Shown: one piece after another, positions 3,206 to 7,566 of the stretch
Position numbering within the stretch: the first letter of the stretch is position 1
Layout of the letters: every line of letters begins with the position of its first letter
From: Dehalococcoidia bacterium
GTDB lineage: Bacteria > Chloroflexota > Dehalococcoidia > Plut-88900
DNA length: 64,000 nucleotides
Direction of reading: 5' to 3'
NCBI GenBank assembly: GCA_965249275.1
Contig: CBDFLQ010000007.1
Span: 800,001-864,000, forward strand
The notes under the pieces: generated by a model
Told to the model about the DNA's origin: nothing
Database searches by the model: none
Seen by the model: only the letters and a program-made list of their open reading frames with translations
Position numbers and translations under genes: made by a program

Positions 3206-4468
3206 CTAGGTGGTTGGGGCAATAGCCTCCACCGCGACACCCCGGACGTAAATCCCCCTAGTCCTTCTTTCGATAGTAGTGATGGCTATGAAGGCCAGGA
3301 AGCCGCCGGCCGCCACCGACAACACCCACTCGGGCCCGAACCTGTCCCCGAGCGCTCCATTGCCAAAGTTTGCGAAGGACATGATGCCTGCGGCGTGAAG
3401 GATGTAAATGCTGGTCACCCGGCCCCGTATTCCGTCCGGCACTACGGACTGGATGAGGATTGACGAGAGGATCATAAATCCCGCTTGAGAAGCGCCCATA
3501 AAGGCGGTGGCCAACATGGCGAGCGGAAGGGTCGGGGCGAACGCAAGGCCAAGAGGGCTGAGGCCACTCACGATCCCATTGATGAGAAGGAGCCTGCCCC
3601 TTCTGTGGGGTGTTGAGAGGGGAGCTATGACTAAGGCTATCAAAAGCGCCCCGACACCGACCGTCACGTTCATCATGCTGACGCCGAAGGCGTCTGTGCC
3701 GAGCTTGGTCTCGGAAATCACTGGGAGAAGCGACTCGAAGGACATGACGAGGGCGCAGTGGAAGATCACAAGAGCGAAGACGCGGACCAGTACCGGGTGT
3801 CGGTAGGCATAGATGAATCCCTCAGCCAGGTTCCGCAGGTGGCCTCGGGCCGATTCGATGACGCCGGTGGAACGGGTGTGGATACGCAAGACGAGGAAGA
3901 TAGCAAGGGCGTAGGCGGCCGAGGCCATTGCAAAGGCCCATCCGATGTCGAGCAGGGCCAATATCGGAGCGATGGCGCCCGGGCCCAGGGCACGGGTCCC
4001 GTGAAAGGCTGCGTTGATCAGAGCGTAGGCGTTTACAAGGTTTCTTCTCGGAACGAGGTTGGCAGTCAGTGACTCAAGACCTGCAACTTGAGTAGCCATG
4101 GCGCTTCCGGTGACGAAGGCTATCACCACCAGATGCCAAACCTGGACAAAGCCGAGCAGCACCAGGAGGGCTGTGCCAACGTGAATGAGTATCTGGAACC
4201 CCATCGCCCAGGCCAAAAGGTCACGGCGTACCATTCTGTCGGCCATGAAACCCGCGAAGACGGGGACGAGAACGTAGGGGATCATGGCGGCGAAAATGAC
4301 CAAGCCGGCGGAGGCGCTGGAATTGTTCTCGGCGAGGTCGTAGGCGAGCCAGCCTCGGGCTACGATTACGGCCCAGGCACCGGCGTCGGCGCTGAGGGCC
4401 GCAAACCAGAGGTGCCGAAAGTCTCGGTGGGCCAGGGCCGGAAGGAATCGGTTGGCGGTTAGCTGCAA
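3206..4468 (-). CDS. MFS transporter
   Basis: About 12 hydrophobic segments, ALAHRDFRHLW N-terminus, GFMADRMVRR motif A, IQSVVPDGIRGRV; TATAAT at 4506-4501 upstream. Confidence 0.88.
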   Translation of the reverse strand: MQLTANRFLPALAHRDFRHLWFAALSADAGAWAVIVARGWLAYDLAENNSSASAGLVIFAAMIPYVLVPVFAGFMADRMVRRDLLAWAMGFQILIHVGTALLVLLGFVQVWHLVVIAFVTGSAMATQVAGLESLTANLVPRRNLVNAYALINAAFHGTRALGPGAIAPILALLDIGWAFAMASAAYALAIFLVLRIHTRSTGVIESARGHLRNLAEGFIYAYRHPVLVRVFALVIFHCALVMSFESLLPVISETKLGTDAFGVSMMNVTVGVGALLIALVIAPLSTPHRRGRLLLINGIVSGLSPLGLAFAPTLPLAMLATAFMGASQAGFMILSSILIQSVVPDGIRGRVTSIYILHAAGIMSFANFGNGALGDRFGPEWVLSVAAGGFLAFIAITTIERRTRGIYVRGVAVEAIAPTT

Positions 4469-4600
4469 GGTTTCATGGTCCGGGTATGAGGGCTGGGGGC
4501 ATTATAGACCTTTGGGGTGGGGGGCGGCACAGCCTCGCAATGTCGCCGGGATATTCGGTTGTGGGTTGGTGTTTAAGGTCTTTTGTTTGTGTGGCGGGTT

Positions 4601-5028
4601 GGCGATGGAAGACGCTTGCTGGACGCTGCCCCCGTTCCTGTGGCTCGGGTACTCCGACGCTCTGGGGCAAGGCGTCCGGCCCGCTTTTACCGCTGCTGCG
4701 GCCTGTGGCCCTGTATACGCTGGACATGGGCAGGGACCGTCAGGGCCACCAGGTCCGAGCCCGACTCCGGGGGTTGGCTGCACCGCATAAGGGCGGTAAG
4801 GAGACTCGTCCAGCGTCCGGGTGGAGCCTCTTGCAGGCGTAATATGTCCAAGTTTGCCGGTGCGACCCGGAGTGCAGGGACCACCGGCTCCCGGCTTGAT
4901 TGAGCGGTCGGGGTACCGAGAGGGCCTCGGCGCCGGGCCTATCCGACCGCTATTCCGCTTAAAGGAGCGGCTTCTCCGTTAGGAGCCTCACATGGAACTA
5001 TAGCGAACCAGGGCGTCTTTCCATCGCC
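4601..5028. ncRNA. Candidate large structured non-coding element of unknown family
   Basis: Terminal complementarity 4601-4615/5013-5028, many internal stems, crossing pairings, no convincing ORF; see findings. Confidence 0.5.
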
Positions 5029-5079
5029 TGGGAGTCAGGGAAGGGGACACGGGGCCCGGTGGGGATGAGGAGATGGCGG

Positions 5080-5122
5080 TCCTCCGTAGGCGGATGTTCC
5101 ATCCTCCGTAGGCGGACGTTCC
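5080..5122. repeat. Tandem direct repeat (2 x 21 nt, period 22) with internal mini-hairpin
   Basis: tcctccgtaggcggatgttcc / tcctccgtaggcggacgttcc, one mismatch; each unit contains tccg-tagg-cgga. Confidence 0.85.
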
Positions 5123-5260
5123 GCTTTCGCTTGTGCCGCGGGCCTGCGCGAGGGCCGTTGGGATGGGCTGAGGCGTTGAGTCCTCGGGTGGGTCGGGTGG
5201 GCTTCCCTAGTGTTTGGTTCCTCCTTGGGTTTAGGGTGAGTGATTGGCCATTCAAGGGAG

Positions 5261-5290
5261 AATATAGTACATATGTACAAGTGTGGTCAA
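5261..5290 (-). promoter_or_regulatory. sigma70-like promoter overlapping a palindromic LexA-like operator
   Basis: Minus strand TTGACC-N18-TATATT; the spacer contains the perfect palindrome GTACATATGTAC (5267-5278), resembling the GAAC-N4-GTTC SOS box. Confidence 0.5.
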
Positions 5291-5330
5291 GGGGTTCGTG
5301 TCACATTTTAGAGGGGGGTACCCCCACCCC

Positions 5331-5496
5331 AGATCCCTCGCGGAGCCTCGGGATGACAGATGAGATGGAGTCGGTTGGAGTCGGACTGACGGGACGGATG
5401 GGCGGTGCGTGGGTCTCCCCTCGCTCGACCCTTCGACCGCGCTCAGGGTGAGCGGCCCCACCCTGGGGATGGATTCCGGCTCGGGGGCCGGGATGA
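5331..5496. repeat. Cluster of three different REP-like palindromic repeats
   Basis: agatccctcgcggagcctcgggatgaca (5331-5358); cgctcgacccttcgaccgcgctcagggtgagcg (5422-5454); tggattccggctcgggggccgggatga (5470-5496). Each is an imperfect hairpin resembling common extragenic repeat types. Confidence 0.65.
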
Positions 5497-5599
5497 AGAG
5501 GGGAGTGGAAGGGAGGTGTCGGAATATCGTTTGAAGTGGTTTTCGATGGGCCTTATACTCCGAGCTTGCCGGACGGTTGGGCCGGGGGAGGGACATGAT

Positions 5600-6310
5600 T
5601 TGGAAAACCTGATAGATATTCTGGAGTCGTTTAACCGGAAGGAGCGGTTTTATCTGCTCGCACAGGCCCTTCACGGGCATGGAGGCATTGAGAATCCGAG
5701 ATTTCAGATATCCGAGTCCTTCAGGTTGGACTTGGGTGAAGCAGTTGGGCTGCATGAACAAGGGATTACTATACCTAGCGATGCTTTTGTGGGGATGGAT
5801 TATCACCTGGATTCGATAGAAGGTAGTCTCGCCCTGACACATAAGGACAAATATCAGCACTATAACAAGAATAGAAAAGTGATTTTCGCCAATCTTGATG
5901 CCTCAGTTGCTGGAACACAACAAGATATTGATTTACTTGTAGCGTTCAAAGCTGAGAGCAAGTACCATTTGGTGCTTATAGAAGCCAAGGGATATTTGAG
6001 TTGGGATACACAGCAACTGTACTCCAAGGGGGAGCGGCTAAGACAAATCTTTGGCGAGAACGGAGATACATATTGTGACGATGTAGAACCACATTTCGTC
6101 ATGATGTCTGAGAACCAGCCTAAAATAGAAAATTGGCACGCTGACCGTCAACCTGCATGTTGGCCGAAATGGATGCGGAACAATAAAGGTGCACCCCTTC
6201 ACCTAACAATGTGTCTGCCAGCTAAAACCAATAAACGCAGAGTTGAGCGTTGTGATCGAGATGGAAATCCCGCAAAGTGTGAAGGGTATTTCCATTGCCC
6301 GTCAGGCTAA
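5600..6310 (+). CDS. Hypothetical protein with PD-(D/E)XK nuclease-like motif
   Basis: Likely TTG start at 5600 after GGAGGG; the upstream ORF extension runs through REP repeats. QQDIDLLVAF...LVLIEAKG motif; visibly AT-richer than neighbours. Confidence 0.65.
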   Translation: MENLIDILESFNRKERFYLLAQALHGHGGIENPRFQISESFRLDLGEAVGLHEQGITIPSDAFVGMDYHLDSIEGSLALTHKDKYQHYNKNRKVIFANLDASVAGTQQDIDLLVAFKAESKYHLVLIEAKGYLSWDTQQLYSKGERLRQIFGENGDTYCDDVEPHFVMMSENQPKIENWHADRQPACWPKWMRNNKGAPLHLTMCLPAKTNKRRVERCDRDGNPAKCEGYFHCPSG

Positions 6311-6360: not shown

Positions 6361-7566
6361 ATGGAAAACAACACTGCCGAAGCCGTAGTCATCGGGGCGG
6401 GGATTGTGGGCAGCAGCATTACGCACTATCTCTCGGAGAAGGGGATGGGTGTGACACTGCTGGACAAGGGGTCGATCGCGGGTGGGGCCACGGGCAAGGC
6501 CACTGCGGTCATACGGATGCACTACACGAACCCCTGGGACTCGGCGATGGCGAAGATTGGCGGGGATGTTTACTCGAACTGGGGAGACCTGATCGGTGGG
6601 GAGAGCGGTTTCGTCAACTCGGGGTTTGTGTTCATTGTCGGGGAGGGCGAAGAGGAGAAGCTGCGGGCCAACGTGGACATCCTCCGACAGGAGGCCGGTA
6701 TAAACACCTACGCCCTGGACCCCGAGTTCCTTCAGGAGCTCCTGCCCGAATGGTACGTCGGAGACGTCGGGGCGGCGGCCTACGAGCCCGACAGCGGATA
6801 CGGCGACCCTCACTCCGCTGCAACGGGCTTCGTGCGGCGGGCGCAGGAGTTGGGAGCGGAGGTGTCGCAGGGAGAAGAGGTGCTGAGGATTATTGAGGAG
6901 GGGGGCCGGGTGACGGGGGTCGAGACTAGCAAGAGGACTATTTCAACGGAAAAGGTGGTCTTGGCGGGCGGAGCGTGGTCGAAGGGGTTGGGGGCCGGGG
7001 TGGGACTCGACCTGCCAATCAACTGTATGATGCTATCTATTGGGGTGCTGAAGAGGCCGCCGGTGCTGCACGGGAGTCATCCCGCCTGCATTGATGCGGC
7101 GAACGGCATCTATTTCAGGCCCGAGCCTGGAGAGTTGACCCTGCTCGGATTCAGCAGTGTCGTCGACAGGCATGAGTCCCCCGAGAACCTGGACCCCGAC
7201 AACTACGATACTGAGCCCGACATGAGATGGTCCCTGCGGACCAGCCGCAGGATCGCGTCCCGGATACCGGCGATGGAAGACGCCGCATGGGTGAGGTCGT
7301 GGAGTGGGGTGGACGGCAACACGCCGGACGGACACCTGATTCTGGATAAGGCGCCGGGAATAGATGGCTTGTACCTGGCGGTGGGGATGAGCGGCACGGG
7401 TTTCAAGGTCGGACCCGCGGTTGGCAAGTGCATGTCGGAGCTGATCGTGGATGGGAAAGCGTCGAGTGTCGACATCCGGCCCTTCCGGTTGGCTCGCTTT
7501 GAAGAGGGGGAGGTACTGGTGGGGAAGCATGAATACAACTACTATCTGTTCAAGCAGGATGAATAA
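6361..7566 (+). CDS. FAD-binding oxidoreductase (sarcosine oxidase beta/DadA-like)
   Basis: VIGAGIVG FAD motif, GATGKATA, TPDGHLIL, GMSGTGFKVGPAVG, PFRLARF. Confidence 0.88.
   Translation: MENNTAEAVVIGAGIVGSSITHYLSEKGMGVTLLDKGSIAGGATGKATAVIRMHYTNPWDSAMAKIGGDVYSNWGDLIGGESGFVNSGFVFIVGEGEEEKLRANVDILRQEAGINTYALDPEFLQELLPEWYVGDVGAAAYEPDSGYGDPHSAATGFVRRAQELGAEVSQGEEVLRIIEEGGRVTGVETSKRTISTEKVVLAGGAWSKGLGAGVGLDLPINCMMLSIGVLKRPPVLHGSHPACIDAANGIYFRPEPGELTLLGFSSVVDRHESPENLDPDNYDTEPDMRWSLRTSRRIASRIPAMEDAAWVRSWSGVDGNTPDGHLILDKAPGIDGLYLAVGMSGTGFKVGPAVGKCMSELIVDGKASSVDIRPFRLARFEEGEVLVGKHEYNYYLFKQDE

Follow-up and report, generated by a model that had tools for sequence, protein, structure and literature searches.

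MITEs are usually well under 600 bp, and the Correia elements of Neisseria measure roughly 100-150 bp. Large bacterial non-coding RNAs represented in Rfam include OLE, GOLLD, ROOL and HEARO, some of which are tied to mobile elements. The bridge RNA of IS110 and the omega RNA of IS200/IS605 are likewise structured and non-coding, lie within a mobile element, are expressed from its end and sit beside the element's own recombinase or nuclease gene. Bacterial MITEs that affect neighbouring genes, for instance the Correia elements, are the closest known kind to the repeat family described here. In the account given by one report, Correia elements can create promoters and, as RNA, are bound or cut by RNase III (PMC2649163). 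As characterized there, they share with the present family a non-coding, dispersed and inverted-repeat-bounded organization, a mostly intergenic position near gene starts, the capacity to supply promoters and to fold as RNA, and a presence that varies between related genomes (PMC2649163). The present unit differs from them in its length of ~830 bp, in a complete internal promoter that points inward, in a helix-closed core of 310-560 nt that comes in at least 8 sequence subfamilies, and in the limitation of the family to one uncultured genus of Dehalococcoidia.

The locus lies in a window of 64,000 nucleotides, which is the whole stretch of DNA that was analysed, from a source genome of 2.9 Mb in 7 contigs that is 87% complete; features are given without a strand unless one is named. 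A gene-free gap of 1.1 kb hosts the element; it is bordered by an MFS transporter gene (3206-4468, minus strand) on one side and by an unannotated ORF on the other. An earlier note on this DNA had singled out positions 4601-5028, proposing in its title a stand-alone, undescribed ncRNA and offering in its text two readings, one as a large folded RNA and one as a non-autonomous mobile element. The title claim is not supported in that form, as the stretch never occurs alone and is always the core of a larger repeat unit: positions 4601-5028 are the inner structured core of a MITE-like repeat and not a one-off RNA gene. The boundaries given there enclose a real core and are too short for the repeat, whose homology to other copies extends from ~4549 to ~5310. 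The homologue search that had been proposed returned many copies in the source genome and in all 8 congeners. The second reading is well supported by multi-copy and genus-wide occurrence, terminal inverted repeats and insertion polymorphism. A stand-alone folded RNA does not hold as stated, although a folded-RNA role for the core is plausible because pairing is kept with compensatory changes and the unit has a promoter of its own. Taken together, the stretch is probably the stem-closed core of a ~0.83-kb non-autonomous transposable element, MITE-like and larger than typical.

Folding and conservation of the stem-closed core

The core, or A domain (4601-5028), is one of 59 arm pairs in the source genome and belongs to subfamily sf3, which has 10 members there. 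Its two ends pair with each other as the earlier note had described: GGCGATGGAAGACGC (4601-4615) and GCGTCTTTCCATCGCC (5013-5028) form a 15/16-nt inverted pair with one bulged T, and ctgg/ccag lengthens the closing helix. The left arm of that helix spans 4601-4622, with a core, GGCGATGGAAG, that is nearly invariant in all subfamilies, and the right arm, placed by sequence and pair scoring, spans 5008-5028. Every internal stem listed in the note was found again, and 80 of the 80 encoded pairs are standard pairs in the window copy.

Single-sequence folding is weak evidence for structure, as judged from the predicted energies. On the plus strand the MFE is -214.5 kcal/mol against -202.2±6.5 kcal/mol in dinucleotide shuffles (z = -1.90; 4 of 100 shuffles equally low), and on the minus strand -200.5 against -180.5±6.7 kcal/mol (z = -2.99; 1 of 100). 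The shuffle test that had been suggested thus places the stretch below its controls on both strands, weakly so, and the plus strand is G-rich, which aids in silico folding.

Comparative pairing lends the core structure stronger support than folding does. The 115 distinct cores from all fetched loci fall into 10 clusters, and the cluster that contains the window copy comprises 32 distinct members with 52-100% pairwise identity; alignments were made by ordinary MAFFT modes, the family alignment having 567 columns. The stems of the earlier note, which had been drawn from the window copy alone, were scored separately to avoid circularity. Across the 32 members 89.5% of their cells are paired, and 17 of the 80 pairs have changes in both partners, whereas shuffles yield 9.6±2.0 (this count is reached in 0 of 500) and slid controls 5-10. 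These compensatory changes are borne by gacgc/gcgtc, gtggccctg/cagggccac, accgc/gcggt, agcggtcgg/ccgaccgct and ccgct/agcgg; gccggtg/caccggc, caagtt/ggcttg and ccgag/ctcgg have none in the 32-member alignment. An RNAalifold consensus contains 77 pairs, of which 17 again bear a compensatory change, where shuffles give 7.3±2.0 (0 of 500 as many) and slid controls 3-8; the covariation term of the consensus is small (-1.98 kcal/mol). Two further diverged clusters have a similar compensatory excess, low-divergence clusters are uninformative for covariation, and two clusters are without excess on the plus strand.

The covariation check that the earlier note had called for therefore came out above shuffles as counted on the 32-member alignment, and several core helices are evidently kept by compensatory changes, to judge from these alignments. 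The signal is modest, with few independent events, since it stems mostly from a few diverged rows. The consensus shapes consist of the closing helix around many short hairpins and vary between clusters. Core interiors of 5 orthologous pairs have identities of 94.2-98.9%, at least as high as those of the outside flanks in 4 of the 5. The 3' flank and module B, described below, show no covariation as structured RNA on either strand (5 against 4.5±0.8).

Both strand hints of the earlier note were correct yet conflicting, G-U pairs pointing to the plus strand and the promoter to the minus strand. The covariation excess is about equal on the two strands, and in the closing helix G-U outnumbers A-C by 195 to 66 cells, favouring the plus strand. 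The failure of that note to match known RNA classes was reproduced in an Rfam search that yielded no family match: with permissive thresholds, the covariance models gave only a chance-level match in the window region, outside the feature, and in 16 loci of several subfamilies they gave SRP RNA and tRNA in the flanks and three matches below the gathering score. The core resembles the large Rfam ncRNAs in size range and dense secondary structure; it differs from them in being multi-copy and genus-specific, in not being conserved across phyla and in matching no Rfam model.

Anatomy of the repeat unit

The core is always found within a larger unit of ~0.83 kb, full units measuring ~800-875 bp. Such a unit begins on the left with the terminus TGTACTCGTTCGG...AGTGACAC, followed by a short variable stretch, a T/G-rich flank and the core itself, 310-560 nt long and closed by a helix of ~20 bp. 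To the right of the core come a 50-nt flank, module B and a terminus of the form ...GTGACA...GAACGGGATCA. The left terminus is represented by 22 BLAST matches (TGTACTCGTTCGGTAG.TTAGTGACAC), all of them 82-306 nt from an arm pair, and the right terminus, ...GG(G/A)ATCA, was recognized by eye in 13 of the 59 units. When the right terminus is reverse-complemented it reads TGATCCCGTTCAC...AGTGACAC, and by eye, once an offset of 1 nt is allowed for, it matches the left one at 9 of 13 plus 8 of 8 positions. The two termini thus form an imperfect TG...CA inverted repeat with CGTTC and AGTGACAC in common. In 54 of the 59 units the right arm is followed by the conserved flank of 50 nt and then by module B over 100 nt or more; the remaining 5 have a variant flank and a match of 44-54 nt.

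The window unit extends from ~4523 to ~5310 and has no recognisable termini, the TGTACTCGTTCGG left terminus included; having lost them, this copy is probably immobile. Its left end (4523-4600) consists of a degenerate terminus and the conserved T/G-rich 5' flank. The alignment of the window to the empty site of a congener ends at 4522, and homology to other copies begins at ~4549. On the other side of the core, a conserved 3' flank that includes GAGGAGATGGCG (5029-5079) adjoins the arm in nearly all copies. It is followed by a copy-specific insert of 43 nt made of two tandem ~22-nt units (5080-5122), which most copies do not have; DNA contigs jump over 5078-5124, a stretch that spans this private insert. 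A short motif of the insert recurs in the left part of other element copies. Module B (5123-5310) is non-coding and is the most sequence-conserved part of the unit, with 51-54 BLAST hits in the source genome.

Other repeats occur beside the units. Module C (5328-5500), a different dispersed repeat with up to 75 BLAST hits in the source genome, lies outside the unit yet within the same inserted block. Copies of module C are themselves a place of insertion for a 1056-bp IS481-like IS, which leaves a 5-bp ATTCC duplication there. On their right, many units (for instance at C7:1089440) are trailed by a palindrome, CCCTCTCCCATC.GAGGGAGAGGG, which often comes after CACCCTCACC and looks like yet another short repeat family.

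Copies, subfamilies and distribution

BLAST of the source genome returned 10 near-full copies of 78-95% identity plus many partial matches to both ends. A scan for arm pairs, defined as inverted pairs of GGCGATGGAAG with at most 1 mismatch and 300-700 nt apart, found the 59 pairs, 310-542 nt in length. Their interiors form 8 subfamilies of 13, 13, 12, 10, 6, 2, 2 and 1 members, the window copy being in the group of 10. Interiors of different subfamilies barely align yet have short blocks in common, such as GGGTTGGCTG and CCAAGTTYGCCGG, and within the core it is the arms that are best conserved when subfamilies with unalignable interiors are compared. An invertible switch (inverton) is ruled out, because the interiors of the 59 units have no minus-strand matches to one another and their orientation is fixed.

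The family, dispersed and variable in presence, is restricted to one genus. It occurs in 8 of 8 genomes of the same genus and in 0 of 32 other genera in a first sample; a wider draw of the class found it in 9 of 401 Dehalococcoidia genomes, belonging to 1 of 222 genera. In a pattern scan of species representatives, all records among the matches listed are titled 'MAG: Dehalococcoidia bacterium', and the sequencing runs that contain the sequence include one labelled sponge metagenome. A literature search that covered the full texts of articles found nothing on such a repeat, which does not prove it unpublished.

Most of the properties of a non-autonomous IS derivative are present in the family, namely dispersed copies, terminal inverted repeats, the absence of a transposase gene and presence/absence polymorphism; in size, with full units of ~800-875 bp, it falls outside the usual range of MITEs. 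It does not belong with Rfam families, invertons or guide-RNA elements. Like IS481/IS3-type IS, the unit has TG...CA termini; its inverted repeats, ~27 bp long, are imperfect, and a promoter and a site resembling a ribosome-binding site lie immediately inside one of its ends. It differs in having neither a transposase gene nor a protein-level remnant of one. The duplications seem to differ as well, the 1056-bp IS481-like IS making one of 5 bp and the one clean unit insertion one of 3 bp or none.

Insertion polymorphism and the window locus

Evidence for insertion comes from two congeners that carry a unit of 873-874 nt where the source genome has an uninterrupted site, with flanks 94-97% identical and sharp borders. 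ATT stands on both sides in this clean filled/empty pair, that is, either ATT was duplicated or nothing was, and target duplication is ambiguous because the pair is the single clean one among the loci screened; by eye, the flanks of other copies have direct matches of 0-5 nt. A screen of all fetched congener loci gave no second clean empty site in the source genome; unit movement is therefore rare on this time scale. Three other empty-site candidates were rejected as composite or replaced sequence. At L023:2363-2629, the clean unit insertion lies ~95 nt upstream of the large SRP RNA gene (Rfam RF01854, 190.9 bits).

At the window locus itself, 5 of 8 congeners have the MFS transporter gene and a DAO oxidoreductase gene spaced by ~165 nt, and this spacer is free of the repeats; the other 3 have inserts of 1.4-2.3 kb. 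In 2 of those 3 the left flank and arm are 91% and module B 78-79% identical to the window, and the interior between the arms cannot be aligned. BLAST matches also stop at the arms at three more orthologous loci. We take these breakpoints to mean that units have recombined or undergone gene conversion with one another within the conserved arms and flanks.

Two further features were noted at this locus. A plus-strand ORF of 254 aa (5546-6307) lies within a 1.8-kb block that is absent from 5 of 8 congeners; it has no Pfam or NCBIfam match, a weak PADLOC match (PDC-S09, E 0.0018) and, by eye, a D...E.K-like motif (DIDLLVAF...LIEAKG). An exact left-arm 15-mer occurs at 7269-7283 within the DAO oxidoreductase gene, where it encodes A-M-E-D-A; of 7 orthologues compared, 1 is identical and the other 6 have 1-3 nt changed. 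It was rejected as a trace of the element and is taken as a chance match in ordinary coding sequence.

Promoter, transcription and gene context

A sigma-70-like promoter, TTGACC-N18-TATATT (5261-5290, minus strand), reads leftwards through module B and the core. The pattern is conserved in the unit alignment and occurs in 33 of 59 units in a relaxed form and in 25 of 59 in a strict form. Further along the same strand lies AAGGAGGA (5219-5226, minus strand; TCCTCCTT on plus), behind which a start codon is absent; AAGGAGG is present in 54 of the 59 units, likewise not followed by a start codon. In minus-strand orientation the unit is laid out like an insertion sequence: an end, a promoter, a Shine-Dalgarno-like AAGGAGG, a non-coding body and the other end. 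No terminator was found for the unit.

In an RNA-labelled run, assembled contigs lie on 4596-4726, 4837-5079 and 5104-5184 and none lie on the flanking genes. These contigs are not counted as evidence of transcription, since they carry neither strand nor level and their target is a multi-copy repeat; a repeat of ~59 copies would also surface from DNA carried over into an RNA-labelled library.

The position of the units relative to genes was counted with our own crude ORF caller. The gene that adjoins the left end of the unit starts there and runs away from it in 46 of 59 cases (binomial p = 2e-5), and 34 of 58 units lie in divergent spacers, whereas in the genome as a whole 345 of 2193 spacers are divergent. 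About half of the left termini, by eye, have TCAA(T) 5-7 nt outside them. This motif gives a -35 box (TTGA) when taken on the minus strand, and it pre-exists in the one clean empty site. Minus-strand promoters by units (window 4500-4540 and other left flanks) often share a C-rich spacer of the TTGACC-CCCACCCC...-TAATAT type.

A candidate partner enzyme

The source genome contains three groups of rve-type IS and a fourth IS, all in near-identical copies, which suggests recent IS activity in this 2.9-Mb genome. The rve-type groups comprise 12 copies of 1056 bp, 8 of 1334 bp and 2 of 1231 bp, and the fourth IS, of 1204 bp, has at least 11 copies; examples lie at C6:56205-57260, C5:115253-116586, C7:247981-249211 and C7:249209-250412. 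The 1056-bp IS encodes a 320-aa rve protein that is nearest to IS481 (186.5 bits, under the NCBIfam cut-off of 224), and it generates a duplication of 5 bp. Its repeats agree with the left terminus of the unit at 17-18 of the first 30 positions, compared with at most 12 for the three other IS, and with the right terminus at 7 of 30. Of the 9 unit-carrying genomes, 5 have close copies of its transposase, in one case with stop codons. The source genome yielded no autonomous element that shares the termini of the unit. The likeness of the termini makes the 1056-bp IS a lead in the search for a putative partner of the units, and the proposal that this particular enzyme spread them in trans is a tentative one, which we would not presume to be correct.

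Alternative explanations

The copies could instead be a genuine family of ncRNA genes of ~700 nt, with their own promoters and a cellular function, that were spread and homogenized mainly by recombination and whose ends are incidental. A conserved promoter inside the unit, pairing kept with compensatory changes and orthologous cores as conserved as neighbouring genes would all suit such genes, as would the congeners at the window locus, which keep flanks and arms (78-91%) around an unalignable interior, and the matches that break at the arms at three more loci, as gene conversion would give. Contigs from the RNA-labelled library cover the unit and none of the flanking genes, but they are mute on strand and level, and DNA carry-over would make a ~59-copy repeat visible in the same way. 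What makes this explanation unlikely is the occurrence of TG...CA inverted termini together with a clean, sharp-bordered insertion, the absence of the promoter pattern from 26-34 of the 59 units and the limitation of the family to one genus. A different possibility retains mobility and moves it into the past, the arms being the inverted repeats of an older MITE nested in a shorter carrier and the internal stems being functionless and incidental to GC-rich DNA. The arms are indeed a perfect 15-bp inverted repeat, the folding z-scores are weak, and the consensus amounts to a closing helix with many short hairpins that depend on the cluster. However, 59 of 59 arm pairs in the source genome carry the flank or module B, and a direct repeat flanking the arms is absent by eye. 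The compensatory changes exceed both sets of controls, and the arms are the best conserved part across subfamilies, which is unexpected for a dead nested element; we consider such nesting quite improbable.

Open frames overlap 4601-5028, and promoter and Shine-Dalgarno motif are arranged in the unit as they are in an insertion sequence, which would suit a decayed protein-coding gene, for instance a transposase remnant, but the core lacks codon periodicity, its variable columns being distributed by phase as 96/142, 96/143 and 100/143, and its gap runs do not come in threes (114/163/79 by length mod 3). Module B keeps no reading frame and varies in length by 1-nt steps, and tblastn of the four IS transposases of the genome against all 59 units gave a best E-value of 0.037. 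With no codon signal, frame or transposase similarity, a coding reading of the core and module B was rejected, in agreement with the earlier note, which had dismissed the overlapping ORFs as spurious; a decayed gene is extremely unlikely. Disfavoured as well, and very improbable, is an RNA acting as guide or primer for its own mobility, whether as an analogue of bridge RNA or omega RNA (IS110/TnpB) or as a SINE-like retroelement. It would account for the internal promoter, for the large folded non-coding core and for insertion beside a recurring TCAA(T), which about half of the copies have, by eye, at 5-7 nt from their left terminus. Yet the 87%-complete source genome has no match to RVT_1, DEDD_Tnp_IS110, TnpB TNB or Y1_Tnp, and among the 9 unit-carrying genomes RT occurs in 3, IS110 in 4 and TnpB in 1-2, so that guide-RNA and retro-copying models are without a consistent partner. 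One closed congener lacks RT, IS110 and TnpB altogether, and no gene for any of the three adjoins the units. Unlike elements with a bridge or omega RNA, the unit thus has no IS110- or TnpB-type enzyme that is adjacent to it or consistently co-occurs with it.

A model for the element and its implications

Under the preferred reading, a non-autonomous transposable element with a stem-closed core, an rve-type (IS3/IS481-like) DDE transposase acting in trans would have spread the units, and in the simplest model the element would land just upstream of promoters. Its internal promoter would then drive a leftward transcript that crosses the core in the direction of the neighbouring gene, and the core would form a folded RNA leader or an ncRNA that affects this transcript. 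For instance, the folded core could stabilize, process or insulate the transcript of the adjacent gene. That the unit is transcribed from its own promoter leftwards and that the core acts as folded RNA on the transcript is, in our estimate, somewhat less likely than not. More doubtful is the full proposal of a transposon-borne structured RNA of ~400 nt that has a conserved 20-bp closing helix, its own promoter and a cassette-like exchange of interiors, and that acts on the downstream transcript or on the spread of the element. If true, it would be a kind of RNA cargo that DDE-type transposons are not known to carry.

For a MITE, it is unusual that pairing is conserved in the core and that interiors are swapped between copies, and the family offers a concrete and cheap test case of whether derivatives of DDE transposons can carry functional RNA domains. 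A striking 'orphan RNA' is here explained as part of a repeat family, and for annotation this means that the family needs to be masked or named, as its copies may otherwise be re-reported as novel ncRNA. By our estimate, from 59 units of ~0.8 kb each, it fills ~1.5% of a small symbiont genome. With most of its units just upstream of gene starts, the family may rewire the expression of dozens of genes in an uncultured, sponge-associated lineage.
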